Sequence record: MN022785.1
From: Escherichia phage VEc20
Length of the DNA: 64,000 nt
Direction: 5' to 3' (one strand)
Part shown: piece after piece, positions 23,811-31,620 of the stretch
How positions within the stretch are numbered: position 1 is the stretch's first letter
How the letters are laid out: every line of letters begins with the position of its first letter
Notes under the pieces: model-generated
Told to the model about the DNA's origin: nothing
Databases searched by the model: none
What the model saw: only the letters and a program-made list of their open reading frames with translations
Position numbers and translations under genes: made by a program

Positions 23811-24014
23811 TTACACTCTCGTATTATGATCGATAATTTCATCAAGAAACATATCTAACGCTTCTATAGCATTATCCACTTTAGTTTCAAAGTCTTTAAT
23901 GCCTTTATTCGAAATACCCGATGAATACCAAGCAAAGTCAATCAGCTCTTCATCTGCTTTGCGAATTGAAGCCACTAATTCCTTAATTTTATCCGCTTGC
24001 TTTTCAGTTTTCAT
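23811..24014 (-). CDS. Small hypothetical protein beginning MKTEKQ
   Basis: ORF 23811..24050 with start set at the internal Met. Confidence 0.45.
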   Translation of the reverse strand: MKTEKQADKIKELVASIRKADEELIDFAWYSSGISNKGIKDFETKVDNAIEALDMFLDEIIDHNTRV

Positions 24015-24202
24015 TATTCCACCACATATGAAAGAGAGAATATTGCACACGCCATGTGAGTTGCAACTTCATCACACATATTATAACGTTTCTTGAGAAG
24101 TTCTACAAGTTCTTCACTAGTAACTTCATCCATGTCGACGAAAAAATCACCATTAATGATGACGTAGATATTTCCTTCTTGATTAAGTGCTTCAATTTTC
24201 AT
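24014..24202 (-). CDS. Small hypothetical protein
   Basis: ORF 24014..24247; start moved to MKIEALNQ because a promoter-like element lies at 24230-24260. Confidence 0.4.
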
Positions 24203-24229
24203 GATGTTCTCCTCTTTATCCGATGGTTG

Positions 24230-24260
24230 TATAGTACCACAGCTCAAACGGAAAGTAAAC
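24230..24260 (-). promoter_or_regulatory. PeSL-type early promoter-like element
   Basis: GTTTAC, spacer, TACTATA; UUCG hairpin (24276-24293) just upstream on the minus strand. Confidence 0.45.
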
Positions 24261-24297
24261 CGGTAAAATGAAAAAAGTCTCCCGAAGGAGACTAATG

Positions 24298-24684
24298 TTA
24301 TTCGAGGGAAAGAAGATACTTACTCTGGTAAAACATTCCAGTAATATCATCTATCGTGCTTTGGATGGCTGGAGGCATTTCTTTATAAATGCTGTTAGAT
24401 TGGTCTAGTATACGATCAATCATTTTAATTGTGTCGGTAGGAAGTTTACTGGCATCTGGAATTGAAGGTGTGTATTTTCTACCAGAATACCCCAAATATT
24501 GCTCACCAAATTTATCAATCAAATCTGGCAACTCGGAGAAAATAAAATCGTATGCTTTGTGTCTAGCATAACTTTTAGTTTCAAAATGTGCAGAATGAAA
24601 ATAAGCTTGTGCAGCCATTAATAAACCTAAGTATTCATCTGCCTTTGAAGGTTTTCCACTTTGTGAAAAGTCGCTGAATTTCAT
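24298..24684 (-). CDS. Hypothetical protein (rI.-1 position)
   Basis: 128 aa; ATGA overlap with rI. Confidence 0.55.
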
Positions 24685-24974
24685 TCAGTCTCCAATTTAA
24701 TGTTCATAATTCTAGCGTATGATTGTGCCATCTCCGCGCCTCGTTCTATACATTCAAAATCAGAAGAGCACGGGTCATTTTTATAGGTCGTTCTCATAAA
24801 ACTATAGAATTGTTCAGACGATTCTACGCTTTTATTTTCAAAAAGTGTATAAACGTGCCTAATACCAGATTCCATAAATTTATCAAAATGAGGATCGACA
24901 TTCGCTTCAATCGGTGGAGATAAAGCAAACGCTAATCCTAGCATGGCAAATAGTGCCGTTGCTTTTAAGGCCAT
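24681..24974 (-). CDS. rI: Lysis-inhibition regulator RI (membrane-anchored, periplasmic)
   Basis: 97 aa; N-terminal signal-anchor MALKATALFAMLGLAFALSP, matches recalled T4 RI. Confidence 0.85.
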   Translation of the reverse strand: MALKATALFAMLGLAFALSPPIEANVDPHFDKFMESGIRHVYTLFENKSVESSEQFYSFMRTTYKNDPCSSDFECIERGAEMAQSYARIMNIKLETE

Positions 24975-24986
24975 AAAGGCCTCCTA

Positions 24987-25199
24987 TCATTTTTGTCCTG
25001 TATTTACTTTATGCCGATGCACGGCCTTAACTTTATCAAGGTATTTTTCAAAATTTCGCAATCTAGTATAGTCTGCCGGAGATTGGTTGAGTGATACTTC
25101 TCGACGCAAAGCTGAAATGATATTTCCAACTTCCCTACGAATTTCATCTAATTGAAGCACAGTAAGATTGCGAAGTTGCTTTTCAGTTAATTGTAGCAT
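24987..25199 (-). CDS. Small hypothetical protein (rI.1 position)
   Basis: 70-aa ORF. Confidence 0.5.
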
Positions 25200-25241
25200 A
25201 TATACCCCTTTAGTTAGATAAACCTATTTATAACTTTTGCA

Positions 25242-25823
25242 CTAACCGAGCTTTTTAGTTAATTCATTCCAATGTTTTCTACACAAAGAAACATAAATTT
25301 CATCACCAATACAGATTTGATTACCTTCTTTAACGGGTGTTCCATCTTCCATTAATCGAGCTGTCATAATAGCTTTTTTACCACAATGACAAACTGCCTT
25401 TAGTTCAATAAGTTTATCTGCAATCGCTAAAAGTTCTTTAGAACCTTCAAACAATTTTCCAGCGAAATCAGTCCTTAATCCATAAGCCATAACAGGAACA
25501 TTATATGTATCAACAATTCGACTTAATTGATGCACTTGTTCAGTTTTTAAAAACTGGGCTTCATCTACAAATACGCAATGAATATCTTTTTGTGCTTCAG
25601 CCCATTTATAGAACTCGAAAATATCCATATCATCTGTAATAATATTCGCTTCCTGTTTAATTCCAATGCGAGAAACAACTTCACAGACAGAATCGCGAGT
25701 ATCAATAGCGGGTTTAAGAACTAATACACTCATTCCACGTTCTTTATAATTATGTGCGGCAGTCAAAAGAGAAGCAGATTTTCCAGCATTCATTGCTGCA
25801 TAAGTAAAAATTAAACTCGCCAT
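25242..25823 (-). CDS. tk: Thymidine kinase
   Basis: 193 aa; P-loop AAMNAGKS and zinc-binding Cys pairs, matches T4 Tk length. Confidence 0.9.
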   Translation of the reverse strand: MASLIFTYAAMNAGKSASLLTAAHNYKERGMSVLVLKPAIDTRDSVCEVVSRIGIKQEANIITDDMDIFEFYKWAEAQKDIHCVFVDEAQFLKTEQVHQLSRIVDTYNVPVMAYGLRTDFAGKLFEGSKELLAIADKLIELKAVCHCGKKAIMTARLMEDGTPVKEGNQICIGDEIYVSLCRKHWNELTKKLG

Positions 25824-25832
25824 ATCACCTTC

Positions 25833-26018
25833 TTAAAGCGTATTCACATAAGCTATTAATTCATTTTCTTTCTTATCAAACCGATCAGCAAATTCTTCCT
25901 GCTGTTCGGGAGATAACGGGCCGTATTCATCATAAAAGGTGTTTGCTTCTGTATGCTCATCTAGAAGTTCATGGATAAGCTCAAATAATTTATCTTTTTG
26001 TTCTTTACTCAGACTCAT
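25833..26018 (-). CDS. Small acidic hypothetical protein
   Basis: 61-aa ORF. Confidence 0.45.
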   Translation of the reverse strand: MSLSKEQKDKLFELIHELLDEHTEANTFYDEYGPLSPEQQEEFADRFDKKENELIAYVNTL

Positions 26019-26184
26019 ATATTAATTTCCAAAAGTTTTAAAATAATTCGCTTTTGCTTAAATATTTCCACAGTTAAATGATCAGTATCTTTTTGACCGA
26101 TTCCAATGACAAAACCTTTATTAACAGCGAGTTCAATTAAATTATCAAGCTCACGTAACACTTCGTATTGTAACTCAAAACTAT

Positions 26185-26397
26185 TCATTTTGGTTTACCT
26201 TCTTTAACGAAATCTGGATAAAGATAAAATCCCGAATAAAATCCTTCACCTTTATGATTGATGCATCCTTTATTAGAACAATAGCACCAATAATCGAAAT
26301 CACAAACCATTTCATCGTTGCATAAAGCAAAAACAACCGGCCATTTACACTTTTCGCAGTGGGCATTTTTAAGAATACTAGTTTGGCTCATAACCAT
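26185..26397 (-). CDS. Small Cys-rich hypothetical protein
   Basis: 70 aa with multiple CxxC pairs. Confidence 0.5.
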   Translation of the reverse strand: MVMSQTSILKNAHCEKCKWPVVFALCNDEMVCDFDYWCYCSNKGCINHKGEGFYSGFYLYPDFVKEGKPK

Positions 26398-26615
26398 GTC
26401 ACCTTCAAGCAGTATTCTTCTACATGCTGTTTACGACCTTTCTTATCAATAAAGGTATATTCAACGAATGTTCCAATGTAGTCTTTATCTACATCATGCG
26501 GACTATTAATTGGACATTTAGTACGGCAAATGCGTTCCCATTGACGAATAATTACTGCCTTATTCTTTGGGTCATATGGATGTGGATAATGTATATTCAT
26601 AATAACGGTTCCCAA
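26388..26615 (-). CDS. Small hypothetical protein
   Basis: 75-aa ORF. Confidence 0.45.
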   Translation of the reverse strand: MGTVIMNIHYPHPYDPKNKAVIIRQWERICRTKCPINSPHDVDKDYIGTFVEYTFIDKKGRKQHVEEYCLKVTWL

Positions 26616-27064
26616 TCAACAATCACAATTTCTAATTTAGAGGAATATGTATCTAAAATCCCCTCAATAATATCCCAGTTCCCTTTACCTATGCCTGCAC
26701 CAATCCTAGGCATATAGATTGTAGGTTTAATCAGTTTATTTTCACCAAACTCATTTAATTCTAACATACAATTCATTAAAGCGGAATACTCAAAATTTGG
26801 CCCTGGTTGAAATTGAGTATAAAGATTAAAGCAGTAAGCTTTATGAGTCCTAAAGTATTTTTCATAAACTGAGTAAGAACCAAGTTTAGTTACATCACCC
26901 CATTCAGTCTGTAATTTATCAGCTTCCAAAATTTTAGGGAAAGCTTTGGTTAATTGACCCGCTACGCCTGAACCCATAGTATGAAAACAATTACATCCAT
27001 GCGCAATATTTTTACCTTCAGCGAAAAGGGCGACAATATCGCCCTTGATATATTTTACAATCAT
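26597..27064 (-). CDS. Macro-domain-like protein (putative ADP-ribose binding/hydrolase)
   Basis: 155 aa; N-terminal GDIVA...NIAHGCNCFHTMGSGVAGQ resembles the macro-domain Gly-rich ADP-ribose pocket. Confidence 0.55.
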   Translation of the reverse strand: MIVKYIKGDIVALFAEGKNIAHGCNCFHTMGSGVAGQLTKAFPKILEADKLQTEWGDVTKLGSYSVYEKYFRTHKAYCFNLYTQFQPGPNFEYSALMNCMLELNEFGENKLIKPTIYMPRIGAGIGKGNWDIIEGILDTYSSKLEIVIVDWEPLL

Positions 27065-27408
27065 CTAGTACTCAATCCTCGATTATAAGAATCTACCAAA
27101 CGGTCAACCATTGAATGACAAGCGGCTTTATCTTTCTCCTCCGCAACTGAACATTCTAAGGTATTCCACTTTTTAGCATATCGTTTTAATAATGTATCGT
27201 TTTTGTATCTGCTTGATTTATCTCTTTCTCCGTCTTTATATGCATATATTAATTTCTGTGCAAATTCAGCTTGGCATGCTTTATTTTTCCCACAATAATC
27301 TGCCGCAGTGCGGTTTACATATTCTCTAATTTCAGTATATGATGTATCTGCTGACGCAGAAGCAGAAAATGAAATTAATCCTATACATAAAACCAAAATT
27401 TTAGTCAT
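27061..27408 (-). CDS. Secreted small protein (at the position of T4 vs)
   Basis: 115 aa; clear N-terminal signal peptide (MTKILVLCIGLISFSASASA). Confidence 0.55.
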   Translation of the reverse strand: MTKILVLCIGLISFSASASADTSYTEIREYVNRTAADYCGKNKACQAEFAQKLIYAYKDGERDKSSRYKNDTLLKRYAKKWNTLECSVAEEKDKAACHSMVDRLVDSYNRGLSTR

Positions 27409-27946
27409 TTACTATTTCCAAAAGTTTATTATTTTTAAGGTAATTAGCCTTTTCTAGGACTTCAGAAGCATATTTAGAACCTGCTTTAACATTCCATCCC
27501 GAATTATAAGAGGATATTGCTTTTCTTATATCGCCCTTATGTATATTTAACCAATAAGAAAGTTCAATGTACGCCCAGGAAGCTGAATTGGATCGTTTAT
27601 TCAACATTCTTTTTATTTCAGCATCGGTCATATTATAACCAAGTTCCTTAACTCTTGCTCGCATAGTAGGCAAATAATTTTGGAACATTCCATAAGCGTG
27701 ATGCTTTGGTTTAGGTTTTAAATTAACTCCGCCAGAGCTTTCTTGCCATAAAATAGCAGCCATTATATGACCTAATCCGCTCTTGTGGATATTTTTGTGT
27801 GTTTTATATTTTCCATCCTTAGAAAATTGTTCCCCGAATTGATACGCGTAACGCATGTTATCGAGTTGGACATTACTGAAAGTATGCTCGGAGCTATGTG
27901 CCATCATTGAAATGGCCAATAGACCAGCGAGTAGTGCTTTTCTCAT
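27401..27946 (-). CDS. Secreted lysozyme/transglycosylase-like protein (at the position of T4 vs.1)
   Basis: 181 aa; signal peptide; WQES..G motif reminiscent of lytic transglycosylases. Confidence 0.55.
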   Translation of the reverse strand: MRKALLAGLLAISMMAHSSEHTFSNVQLDNMRYAYQFGEQFSKDGKYKTHKNIHKSGLGHIMAAILWQESSGGVNLKPKPKHHAYGMFQNYLPTMRARVKELGYNMTDAEIKRMLNKRSNSASWAYIELSYWLNIHKGDIRKAISSYNSGWNVKAGSKYASEVLEKANYLKNNKLLEIVND

Positions 27947-27953
27947 GCTTACC

Positions 27954-28415
27954 TCATTGAGTTTTAATTACTGCTTTAGAAGCCTTTCCTGGTAAACGAC
28001 GACTATTGATAATTGCCATCCTGCACTGAAGTGACGGGTCTTTGAACTTCGCATTAGGTTTACAAACTGTAAATCCAAGCCAAAGATTTCCATCTGTGAT
28101 TTCTAAACGTCCAGGACGATATTCAACCCCATCAATAAAATCCTCGTCAATATCAGGACGCGGAGGCATACTCAGGAATTCATTAACTTCTAAAACATGG
28201 TCTTTTATTTTATGGAATAATTCAAAAACGTATGTCTCATCAATCTCCCGTTGAATTGCGCGATCAAGAAGATGTTGAGAATATTTTAGATGAAACGATG
28301 AGACTCCTGCTGCTTTTGATGCCTCACGAATCTCATTGTTAATTTGACGAAACTCCGACTCAAAGTGACGACGAAGCTTATTTCGACGGATAAAAACTTC
28401 TGTATTGATAGTCAT
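27954..28415 (-). CDS. regB: Endoribonuclease RegB
   Basis: 153 aa as in T4 RegB; early-promoter-like element immediately upstream. Confidence 0.75.
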   Translation of the reverse strand: MTINTEVFIRRNKLRRHFESEFRQINNEIREASKAAGVSSFHLKYSQHLLDRAIQREIDETYVFELFHKIKDHVLEVNEFLSMPPRPDIDEDFIDGVEYRPGRLEITDGNLWLGFTVCKPNAKFKDPSLQCRMAIINSRRLPGKASKAVIKTQ

Positions 28416-28432
28416 GTTATTCTCCTCTTAAC

Positions 28433-28463
28433 TGATAGAAAAATTATACCACAGTCAAGAGGA
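28433..28463 (-). promoter_or_regulatory. Early promoter-like element upstream of regB
   Basis: Minus strand GTTTAC, 17 nt, TATAAT. Confidence 0.5.
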
Positions 28464-28474
28464 AAAGTAAACAG

Positions 28475-28795
28475 TTATTCTTTAAATCTAATCAATTTAT
28501 TCATAGACTTTGAAACTTCTGCACGAACCTCATGTAGATTTTTGAGCTGTTCAAGACGCTGCGTATAGTAAGCAATTTCATCTTCTTCGAGACAGTCCTG
28601 TGAATCTTCTTTAAGATACCGTGCATAGTCCTGGAAAGCGTTACGGACTACTTCCTGGAAGTCATCAAGACTTTGAATTTTCTTAGGAGCAGCAGACACA
28701 CGACGAGGGGCAGTATAATACTCATAACCAAACCCTGCGCTTAATTGAGCCATTAGTATTTTTCCTCTGGTTGGAACACAGCACGACAAGCCCAC
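28475..28795 (-). CDS. Hypothetical protein
   Basis: 106-aa ORF. Confidence 0.5.
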
Positions 28796-29055
28796 ATACT
28801 GGCTTCTTTGAGTTTCGTTTTAGCAATAGCTAACTGATCGAGGCTTTCAGCATAATTCTTCGCGAGTTCAAAGTCTTCGCAATCGTCCCACGCTTCCCAG
28901 AATTCATCATATAAAGCATCAAAGATAAGTCCTAAACGAACTTCAGCGTCTTTAATAGCATTTACTTTACCGATTTTTTCGTCGGTATGTGGTTTATAAC
29001 CCTTAATATCTTCAATCATATTTGACTTCCTCACCAGTGCATAAATCGTATTCAA
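28753..29055 (-). CDS. Hypothetical helical protein (vs.x region)
   Basis: 100-aa ORF; 5' end overlaps the upstream ORF, start uncertain. Confidence 0.45.
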
Positions 29056-29233
29056 CTAAACGAATAGGTTCATGAATGCCATATCCCTGAACAGAAATTT
29101 CTGTCGTAGGATAAATTCCATCAATATCACCCATATTCCAGGCTTCATTAAATTGCTGTTCGCCTGAATTACTAAACCACTCGGCGAAAGCATTTAGCAC
29201 ATCTTCAGAACCTTCAATAATTATCTTTGCCAT
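29012..29233 (-). CDS. Small hypothetical protein
   Basis: 73-aa ORF. Confidence 0.45.
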   Translation of the reverse strand: MAKIIIEGSEDVLNAFAEWFSNSGEQQFNEAWNMGDIDGIYPTTEISVQGYGIHEPIRLVEYDLCTGEEVKYD

Positions 29234-29595
29234 TACAAACTCTCGGTAAAGGTACGAGCGATAACGTCGCGCTGCTGTTCCGGAGTCAGAGAGTTAAAGC
29301 GAACTGCATAACCGGATACACGGATGGTCAGCTGCGGATATTTTTCCGGATGCTTAACTGCATCTTCCAGAGTTTCACGACGCAGAACGTTAACGTTCAG
29401 GTGTTGACCACCTTCAATTTTAACTGTAGGCTGTGGCTCAATTTCAATTTCACGGGCATGCAAACCATAGAAAATTTCTGGGTCTACAAAAGAGTCCTCT
29501 TTAAAGGTTTTAGAAACGATAATTCGTGCTTGAATACCATCTTCAAAATAAATAGTGCCTTTGTGTGTGCCTTCAAGAATTTGATATGCTTTCAT
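29233..29595 (-). CDS. grcA: Autonomous glycyl radical cofactor (GrcA/YfiD-like)
   Basis: 120 aa; C-terminal ~60 aa including the RVSGYAVRF glycyl-radical motif match recalled E. coli GrcA; this part uses GC-rich host-like codons. Confidence 0.85.
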
Positions 29596-29602
29596 ATAAA
29601 CC

Positions 29603-29932
29603 TCAATTAGAAAATAAATTTATCCAAGATTGTTCTTTAATTAAAAACGGCTCAGAATCATATGCCATTAAACTTTGCGTAATTAATCCTTTAAAAGGTC
29701 CATCAATAAATTCCATGGTAAAATACGGAATTTTATTCATTAATCTTGCATTAGGAGCAGTGCACAAAACTCTGCATCCTTTGAATACGCCTTTTTGTAA
29801 TTTGTATTGCTTGGGATAAAATTCGCTCAAAATGTTATTTTTTGCCAAAATTTCAAAATGATTCACCAATTTATTTTTAATAGTTTTTGGTGAAAAATAA
29901 AGATATTCGAAAAGCTGAGTGTCTGTCATCAT
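29603..29932 (-). CDS. Hypothetical protein
   Basis: ORF 29603..29983; start likely the internal MMTDTQ. Confidence 0.45.
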
Positions 29933-30468
29933 TGCATTCCGATTACGAAAAACTGTGGACGAGTAATACCACCAATGCAACATTTAATATTACAGCAGCA
30001 GTGTACAGTGTCAATATGGACACTATAAATCTTATCCATATCAGGAGATTTGACAGGCTCATCAATTATATACAAAATTCGCGAAAGCGATAAACCTCTG
30101 AACTTGCTTCCTTTATTACCAATAAAACTGCGCACAGAATCAGTAAATAAACGAAAACGTATATCATCATTAGAATAACGCGAAAATTCCTTTTTAATAT
30201 TATCTGCGGAAATTTTAGCGTAAGCTGAAGTATTAGAAAGAACAATAACTGTTCCACCGTCATACAACCAATTAGCGGCAAAATTAGTTACTGCAGTTGA
30301 TTTACCAGATTGACGCCCACCATCTAGTCGAAGTGTACAATACTGTTTAAGTAAGTCTTCAAATGGCGGGATATATTCGTTTTTACAAATTTCTTCTACT
30401 CTAGCATCAGAATGGTGTGTAAAAGCATTCATCAGGGATAGATAAGGACCAGTTAAAAATGTTCTCAT
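29929..30468 (-). CDS. Small P-loop protein
   Basis: ORF 29929..30516; Walker A GGRQSGKST and Walker B-like ILYIIDEP; start may be the internal MRTFLTG. Confidence 0.5.
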   Translation of the reverse strand: MRTFLTGPYLSLMNAFTHHSDARVEEICKNEYIPPFEDLLKQYCTLRLDGGRQSGKSTAVTNFAANWLYDGGTVIVLSNTSAYAKISADNIKKEFSRYSNDDIRFRLFTDSVRSFIGNKGSKFRGLSLSRILYIIDEPVKSPDMDKIYSVHIDTVHCCCNIKCCIGGITRPQFFVIGMQ

Positions 30469-30613: not shown

Positions 30614-31030
30614 TTAAATGTAAATATTTTTGCCGTAATACTTATACCAGTGTGGCTTCATTAAAATTTTTTCATCGAGTCGTTGTTGACTCAACTTAAT
30701 AGCTGATTTGCATGGATTATAATCATTTTTCCATTCTACTGGAATATCGCTGATGTCAGGAACTTCAGTATCTTTTATACTGAACCCGCGTTTTAAGCAT
30801 TCCGTTATAATGTCCGATTGACGCTTTCGCAAAAATTCTAACTTATCGTAAAAGAAAGTAACATGACCAGAACCTAAAATAAATTTAGAAGATATTTTAA
30901 AATCTTTAACGCGCTTACCGTTTGCCACATGCTTACGAACTATACCAAAAACACGCGGCAATTCACGGTATTCTGCGATTAAATGTTGATCAGCAAGTTC
31001 AGATACTAAAGTCAAATTAATACGAGTCAT
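30614..31030 (-). CDS. denV: Endonuclease V (pyrimidine-dimer DNA glycosylase)
   Basis: 138 aa; [17 protein letters not shown]... close to recalled T4 endo V. Confidence 0.9.
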
Positions 31031-31046
31031 TTTATCCCTCCAAGTA

Positions 31047-31085
31047 ACTGTGAATATACTATCACAATTCTAGGAGAAAGTAAAC
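31047..31085 (-). promoter_or_regulatory. Early promoter-like element upstream of denV
   Basis: Minus strand GTTTAC, spacer, TAGTAT. Confidence 0.45.
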
Positions 31086-31089
31086 AACT

Positions 31090-31620
<531 letters not shown>

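Follow-up and report, generated by a model that had tools for sequence, protein, structure and literature searches.

Tk.4 (AdfM) of a T4-like phage, a stand-alone macro domain with a probable SCO6735-type glutamine active site and a role against DarTG2

The T4 gene tk.4 has recently been connected with the bacterial system DarTG2. In a 2025 preprint that uses HIDEN-SEQ, tk.4 is the sole significant transposon-sequencing hit of a T4 library on a DarTG2-expressing host, and a clean tk.4 knockout makes T4 sensitive to DarTG2; the gene is renamed adfM (anti-DarT factor, Macrodomain), T5 serves as the DarTG2-sensitive control, and enzymatic removal of ADP-ribose from DNA by the product is said by the authors to be something that “seems likely” (bioRxiv 10.1101/2025.11.20.689424). 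The phenotype on the DarTG2 host is the only one reported there for tk.4. The anti-DarTG2 function of tk.4/adfM is thus already known from that source. Our literature search turned up no biochemical test of the Tk.4 protein, and the main text of a T4 omics paper does not mention tk.4. An enzyme of comparable architecture has been characterized in Streptomyces coelicolor: SCO6735 cleaves thymidine-linked ADP-ribose on DNA, saves cells from DarT toxicity, and belongs to a glutamine-type, ALC1-like class without a catalytic lysine; its Gln85 holds the substrate and a network of water molecules in place and does not act as a nucleophile, and neither the Q85A nor the Q85E variant hydrolyses thymidine-ADP-ribose DNA (PMC9411070). 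The name “AdfM” has also, independently, been given to gp104 of the chimallivirus PhiKZ, which strips ADP-ribose from DNA in vitro (Cell Rep 2026, PMC13309987).

The window that we analysed, a stretch of 64,000 nucleotides taken as a whole, carries the same gene. Its tk.4/adfM coding sequence occupies 26597..27064 on the minus strand, runs from ATG to TGA with the stop codon included, and encodes 155 amino acids that form a single macro domain and are identical to T4 Tk.4 (ORF 60.5) at 155/155 positions. The window belongs to a Tequatrovirus but not to T4 itself: at the nucleotide level it agrees with the T4 record X04567 at about 95% of positions, and it has neither ipII nor ipIII between denV and e. 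The product begins with MIVKYIKGDIVALFAEGKNIAHGCNCFHTMGSGVAGQ, matching the N-terminal segment quoted in the preliminary description of this DNA (GDIVA...HGCNCFHTMGSGVAGQ), and that segment is present in the translation of the tk.4 ORF. The preliminary description had called the protein macro-domain-like from sequence alone and had proposed that it might erase ADP-ribose marks placed by the host in defence; the gene can now be tied to a published function that agrees with the second idea, in that, according to the preprint, T4 needs tk.4 on a DarTG2 host and is sensitized when the gene is knocked out. Neither the macro-domain call nor the idea of erasing host marks is new, because the preprint reports both for an identical protein.

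The minus-strand genes around tk.4 are closely packed, and their order, regB-vs.1-vs-tk.4-tk.3...tk, is that of T4. The run comprises regB (27954..28415), vs.1 (27401..27946; phrog_600, E=1.7e-68), the valyl-tRNA synthetase modifier gene vs immediately upstream of tk.4 (27061..27408; phrog_1256, E=1.7e-39), tk.3 next downstream (26388..26600; Pfam DUF7202, E=2.1e-38, over residues 6-75 of a longer ORF) and, beyond it, tk (25242..25823). Both ends of tk.4 overlap their neighbours at an ATGA, the vs stop with the tk.4 start and the tk.4 stop (TGA) with the tk.3 start (ATG). Upstream of regB, at 28443..28471 on the minus strand, is a promoter-like site of the T4-early type (TTTACT-17-TATAAT with an extended -10 TG), which agrees with the consensus at 10/12 positions in a scan where the regional total of such sites was no higher than in shuffled sequence; in phage ASO78A, which is 98.6% identical, the equivalent site carries a T4 early promoter annotation. 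Judged by its sequence and placement, this site is the likely start of a regB-vs.1-vs-tk.4-tk.3 transcript. Such a place, among overlapping early genes downstream of a promoter of the T4-early type, would suit a factor that is needed before replication.

Two neighbours had been described as secreted proteins downstream of tk.4, one of them lysozyme/transglycosylase-like. Because all these genes lie on the minus strand, vs.1 and vs precede tk.4 in the direction of transcription, so that part of the description does not hold, but by heuristic inspection both N-termini are signal-peptide-like, that of Vs being of a textbook Sec type (MTK-ILVLCIGLISFSA-SASA/DT) and that of Vs.1 reading MRK-ALLAGLLAISMMA-HS/SE, and these segments are kept in divergent homologues. 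The transglycosylase likeness of Vs.1 also stands, with a Pfam SLT score of 21.3 bits, exactly at the cut-off, and with E69-S-S, Y85-G-x-x-Q89 and S146-Y-N-x-G150 invariant in three divergent homologues. The four cysteines of Vs are conserved in a 52%-identical homologue, and PDB sequence searches with Vs and Vs.1 gave no useful match. Adjacency of vs.1, vs and tk.4 holds in the T4-like phages examined. On one distant T4-like contig an SLT gene lies two genes from the macro gene, on another there is no SLT gene in the 8.4 kb examined, and the arrangement is absent at the bacterial loci. A functional module of tk.4 with vs and vs.1 was considered and found no support: these are known genes, adjacent by T4-lineage synteny, with no evident ADP-ribose connection.

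Several kinds of search agree on what Tk.4 is. Pfam Macro (PF01661) matches residues 22-132 at 27.7 bits, above its gathering cut-off of 22, and PHROG 335 matches at E=1.3e-65; together with the tblastn and profile matches given below, these place the signal of the tk.4 ORF far beyond chance. A six-frame HMM search of the window returned this one macro match, at E=4.8e-64, whereas the same kind of search of T5 found neither a Tk.4-type nor a DarG-type macro domain (best E=0.066), a correlation that fits the sensitivity of T5 to DarTG2 and a protective role of Tk.4. Searched against the PDB as a single sequence, Tk.4 matched BT1257, Poa1p, SCO6735, DarG and TARG1, and the top matches were macrodomains only. 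With a 64-sequence profile the values were 5.5e-18 for BT1257, 7.5e-15 for TARG1, 1.9e-14 for Poa1p, 8e-14 for SCO6735 and 1e-13 for DarG; matches in the ALC1-like class fell between 5e-18 and 9e-12, and macros of the MacroD type or from viruses reached only about 1e-2. An AlphaFold model built from the 64-sequence alignment has a mean pLDDT of 95.7 and a pTM of 0.91, and Foldseek aligned it to PDB entries of TARG1, Poa1p, BT1257, DarG and SCO6735 at probability 1.00 with TM scores of 0.7-0.8, the best being TARG1 (4J5R, E=7.5e-10) and Poa1p (6LFR, TM 0.81); DarG gave a TM of about 0.76-0.79. Every one of the 50 Foldseek matches listed is a macro domain or a design on a macro-domain scaffold. 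The order of the Foldseek matches is that of the profile search, and by sequence and by structure the closest relatives are those of the ALC1-like, or TARG1-DarG-SCO6735, class. Profile and structure searches, the test that the preliminary description had set for its macro fold, thus recover that fold, and on the predicted model Tk.4 is a genuine macro (ADP-ribose-binding) domain with three alpha/beta/alpha layers.

The features expected of an ADP-ribose pocket are present and strongly conserved. Two glycine-rich loops are kept, and both are predicted to take part in binding. The loop-1 motif, H22-G-C-N25-C-F-H-T-M-G-S-G-V-A35 (26960..27001, minus strand), is the predicted ADP-ribose binding and catalytic loop; it includes MGSGVA at residues 30-35, and the resemblance to a glycine-rich ADP-ribose loop noted at the outset proved sound. 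Within it H22, G23, N25, C26, G33 and A35 show little or no variation among 121 phage or metagenome homologues and 78 bacterial ones. The loop-2 motif, P119-R-I-G-A-G-I-G-K-G-N-W130 at residues 119-130 (PRIGAGIGKGNW; 26675..26710, minus strand), corresponds to the diphosphate-binding glycine loop of macro domains, and here P119, I121, G122, G124 and W130 vary little or not at all among homologues. Between the two, the motif N80-L-Y-T-Q84 (26813..26827, minus strand) puts Gln84 at the position of the catalytic lysine, K80 in DarG and K84 in TARG1. In the alignment N25 falls on N22 of DarG and T83-Q84 on the T-K of its FPTK motif (K80), the DarG sequences being the true PDB ones from M. tuberculosis and T. 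aquaticus. T83-K84 of TARG1 presumably aligns with T83-Q84 of Tk.4, and D125 with G126, the numbering of the TARG1 sequence used agreeing with the published K84/D125. Tk.4 therefore has no catalytic lysine, since Gln84 sits where DarG and TARG1 have it. That absence is a family trait and not decay, because Q84 is kept in 120 of the 121 phage or metagenome homologues and in all 78 bacterial ones; H22, N25, D49, N80, Y82 and T83 are conserved together with it in both sets, which argues for an enzyme and not for a mere binder. An hhalign comparison with SCO6735 (probability 98.9%; sequence from 5E3B, numbering verified at V25, K34, Q85 and K89) sets N80...Q84 on N81...Q85 and H22-G-C-N25 on H24-V-C-N27. 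As Q84 falls on Q85, we assign Tk.4 to the ALC1-like class as a glutamine-type member. We also weighed an inactive “reader” that has lost its catalytic lysine and rejected it: Gln84 corresponds to the essential Gln85 of an active enzyme, and the active-site residues are invariant. In charge Tk.4 is mildly acidic, with a pI of 5.9 and values below 7 in 84% of phage homologues, whereas the relatives that act on DNA are all basic (SCO6735, very much so, at 9.9, the DarG macro domain at 9.2 and TARG1 at 8.6), pI being a crude stand-in for surface electrostatics.

Relatives of Tk.4 are widespread. By tblastn 2,750 of the 50,697 phage records contain one; these represent many phage families and include phages of Escherichia, Klebsiella, Salmonella, Pseudomonas, Vibrio, Acinetobacter, Aeromonas and Bacillus, and a profile of the homologues reaches 18,327 clusters at 50% identity with E<=1e-3, or 1,236 with E<=1e-30. 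Their database labels vary among “hypothetical”, “phosphatase”, “macro domain protein” and “Poa1p-like”, and the findings here bear on how some 2,750 phage genomes that encode a homologue of Tk.4 are annotated, many of which still read “phosphatase” or “hypothetical”. When one genome was scanned for each bacterial species, at least 524 loci were confirmed. The best 80 of these are 34-43% identical to Tk.4 and come mostly from Rhodobacteraceae, relatives of Desulfobacter, cyanobacteria, Bacteroidota and Verrucomicrobia, along with a few phage contigs binned as MAGs. The nearest “MAG” homologues (Bacilli, Culicoidibacterales) had to be set aside as bacterial contexts; they are T4-like phage contigs that encode Rnl1, a Dda-like helicase, PNKP and dCMP deaminase. 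Clustering the neighbours at 77 bacterial loci revealed no partner conserved beyond close taxa. Ten representative neighbours sampled from these loci are mostly of a housekeeping type (semialdehyde dehydrogenase, a class I tRNA synthetase, SecA, ABC transporter components, peptidases), and DarT is not among them. In Rhodobacteraceae a protein of the EEP nuclease/phosphatase family abuts the macro gene, and at one bacterial locus the neighbour is a type I restriction HSDR_N/DUF559 protein. The branch thus spans many phage families as well as bacterial chromosomes without DarT. Given so large a family and bacterial contexts free of DarT, Tk.4 looks like a member of a stand-alone macrodomain hydrolase lineage common to bacteria and phages, and not like an orphaned DarG.

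We consider it probable that Tk.4/AdfM is an early-expressed, stand-alone macro domain by which T4-like phages escape DarTG2, and that it does so with a glutamine active site of the SCO6735 type. When a phage infects, thymidines in single-stranded DNA are ADP-ribosylated by DarT2, and replication is blocked. Tk.4 most likely accommodates the ADP-ribose moiety in its conserved cleft, with loop 1 (HGCNC...MGSG) and loop 2 (PRIGAGIGKGNW), and would then hydrolyse the thymidine-ribose bond so that the DNA is restored. Its active site falls with the SCO6735 and not with the DarG/TARG1 type, with Gln84 in place of the catalytic lysine. The macro fold, the equivalences of active-site residues and, through the preprint, the genetic need for tk.4 on DarTG2 hosts stand as results; that Tk.4 itself acts as a hydrolase, and on DNA, we infer from homology with SCO6735.

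A quite improbable alternative, in our estimation, is that Tk.4 mainly binds DarT2, by stoichiometric inhibition or DNA mimicry, and does not hydrolyse ADP-ribosyl-DNA. The acidity of Tk.4 and of most phage homologues is what one might expect of a DNA mimic, but the whole active-site set is invariant in homologues that have no DarT partner, and fast-evolving toxin binding would not require this. [quoted passage not shown] Catalytically dead SCO6735 Q85A inhibits DarT in vitro more than DarG K80A or TARG1 K84A does (PMC9411070). Because that inhibition by Q85A occurs through direct interaction, a non-catalytic contribution of Tk.4 is possible. Unlike DarG, however, Tk.4 is without the C-terminal domain that binds DarT, and DarG models match it over their macro part only.

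It is likewise very doubtful that Tk.4 is at heart a small-molecule enzyme, an ADP-ribose-1''-phosphate phosphatase like Poa1p or an O-acetyl-ADP-ribose deacetylase, for which the effect on DarTG2 would be a side activity and which would perhaps clear by-products of RNA repair or defence signals. PHROG 335 and many GenBank records do say “phosphatase” or “Poa1p-like”, but the former label has been transferred by similarity. Poa1p is among the best fold matches and its H23 aligns with H22, but at the key position Poa1p has a serine, and the glutamine of Tk.4 is that of the DNA-thymidine hydrolase SCO6735. The bacterial homologues stand alone in housekeeping contexts, and Iyer et al. 2022 have argued for low-molecular-weight ADP-ribose derivatives as the targets of most phage macro domains; the sole tk.4 phenotype reported in the preprint is nevertheless on a DarTG2 host, where the gene was the single hit.

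The preliminary description had also brought up the protein modifications made by T4 itself. T4 encodes three ADP-ribosyltransferases, Alt, ModA and ModB, which modify arginine, and to our knowledge arginine-ADP-ribose is a substrate of ARH-type hydrolases and not of known macro domains. A role for Tk.4 in undoing or adjusting the ADP-ribosylation or RNAylation of host proteins by these enzymes is therefore extremely unlikely, even though tk.4 shares with them expression from the early region: nothing links Tk.4 to these modifications, a T4-specific partnership does not suit a family that is spread over many kinds of phage (2,750 records) and over bacteria in which its neighbours are of a housekeeping type, and the phenotype reported in the preprint is confined to a DarTG2 host (bioRxiv 10.1101/2025.11.20.689424).

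We also entertain, as a speculation against which we would currently wager, a wider role for the family defined by H-x-C-N-C ... N-x-Y-T-Q. It could be a mechanistically distinct branch of glutamine-type macro domains, acidic and with a short loop, whose substrates extend beyond DarT2-modified DNA, and the “AdfM” proteins of T4 and PhiKZ would then be independent solutions to the same problem. Candidate substrates may include ADP-ribosylated RNA, other nucleobase adducts and small ADP-ribose signals.

How, then, does Tk.4 compare with the known systems, if it is the early-expressed hydrolase that we favour? SCO6735 (PDB 5E3B) is like it in being a stand-alone macro domain with no adjacent DarT and with an H-x-C-N loop. 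The two are also dissimilar in several respects: single-sequence similarity is low (E=3e-4), the motif N-M-I-G-Q of SCO6735 is N-x-Y-T-Q in Tk.4, the DNA-positioning K34 is replaced by S32, there is no lysine at the position of K89, and the mobile loop after the glutamine is five residues shorter. The acidity of Tk.4 and the loss of K34, K89 and the longer mobile loop count against DNA hydrolysis. Human TARG1/OARD1 and yeast Poa1p, of the Poa1p-like macro group, share with Tk.4 the histidine that starts loop 1. The catalytic dyad K84/D125 of TARG1 presumably corresponds to Q84/G126, and Poa1p has a serine at the position of Gln84. Of the catalytically important His23 and Ser30 of Poa1p, the first aligns with H22 and the second is represented by Thr29; the H-x-C-N-C motif and Thr29 of Tk.4 also resemble the Poa1p phosphatase, a further point against the reading that we favour.

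The macro domain of DarG (5M31/5M3E from T. aquaticus, 5M3I from M. tuberculosis) resembles Tk.4 in its fold, in the loop-1 asparagine (N22/N25) and in opposing DarT2. It differs at the catalytic position, where Lys80 in FPTK gives way to Gln84 in LYTQ, and in the C-terminal DarT-binding domain, which is absent from the 155 residues of Tk.4. The NCBIfam DarG equivalog NF048014 scores Tk.4 at 30.3 bits against a cut-off of 250, over model positions 2-146 of 338, and the PADLOC DarG model aligns over positions 2-145 of 329, the macro part alone. No darT lies next to tk.4 in the window, where the neighbours are vs and tk.3. We therefore rejected a captured DarG antitoxin, given the glutamine in place of the catalytic lysine, the missing C-terminal domain, the NCBIfam score far below cut-off, and the absence of DarT neighbours at the bacterial homologue loci examined.

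The chimallivirus AdfM proteins (PhiKZ gp104, PhiPA3 gp108) share with Tk.4 a name and a counter-defence role against DarTG2, yet their macro subfamily is another one, in that FPTK of the DarG type is retained in PhiKZ gp104 (N23, K78) and FPTK also in PhiPA3 gp108. The BLASTP match between PhiKZ gp104 and Tk.4 is marginal (E=0.005 over 23 residues); the PhiKZ protein is expressed late and localized to the phage nucleus, whereas tk.4 is found among early genes. DarG-type macro domains occur in 291 phage records as against 2,750 for the Tk.4 type, and no T4-like phage was among 40 entries sampled from those 291. The name AdfM is thus now borne by two unrelated macro subfamilies, a T4 type and a PhiKZ type. 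Tk.4 with DarTG2 would form one layer of an ADP-ribosylation arms race in which DarTG1 is met by AdfN and DarTG2 by AdfM, and the T4-type factor in that layer appears to be a glutamine-type relative of SCO6735 rather than a captured DarG.

Vs, encoded on the minus strand at 27061..27408 and annotated as a modifier of cytoplasmic valyl-tRNA synthetase, has by heuristic inspection an N-terminus resembling a classical Sec-type signal peptide (MTK/ILVLCIGLISFSA/SASA|DT), and alignment with a 52% identical Winklervirus homologue shows four conserved cysteines. If Vs were an exported, disulfide-type protein, as these sequence features suggest, binding to cytoplasmic ValRS would be hard to reconcile with it. 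The HIDEN-SEQ preprint (bioRxiv 10.1101/2025.11.20.689424) names vs as the T4 gene with the strongest fitness effect in minimal medium. The neighboring gene vs.1 (27401..27946, minus strand) encodes a protein that also has a signal-peptide-like N-terminus and resembles SLT-type lytic transglycosylases, with E69-S-S, Y85-G-x-x-Q89 and S146-Y-N-x-G150 invariant across three divergent homologues. A PDB sequence search with Vs.1 found no relative, and we found no annotated function for it. Vs.1 would be an early-expressed periplasmic murein enzyme, separate from both gp5 and the T4 lysozyme e.

Across 24000..30000, the minus-strand early genes are overlapped by several ORFs on the plus strand (40-127 aa; one lies at 26424..26717). 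The region is explained without any of them, and they appear to be artefacts, antisense ORFs of an AT-rich genome.

The window shares ~95% nucleotide identity with T4. Whereas T4 carries the internal-protein genes ipII and ipIII between denV and e (X04567 positions 717-1716), both are missing from the corresponding region here (30614..31584), where denV (30614..31030) directly adjoins the lysozyme gene e (31090..31584); the phage is therefore a T4 relative, not T4 itself.

In five Rhodobacteraceae loci (L040, L060, L062, L082 and L084), a conserved gene of 397-400 aa directly follows the Tk.4-family macro gene, overlapping it or lying within 25 nt. The sole member sampled (L040 5483-6676) matches the endonuclease/exonuclease/phosphatase (EEP) family, and the two genes may form a lineage-specific DNA-repair pairing. 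The name AdfM was coined independently by two groups for macro proteins of different subfamilies (PMC13309987; bioRxiv 10.1101/2025.11.20.689424). BLASTP likeness between the two is only marginal. PhiKZ gp104, the AdfM of PMC13309987, is DarG-like and Lys-type (FPTK motif), whereas T4 Tk.4, the AdfM of the preprint, is SCO6735-like and Gln-type (Gln84).
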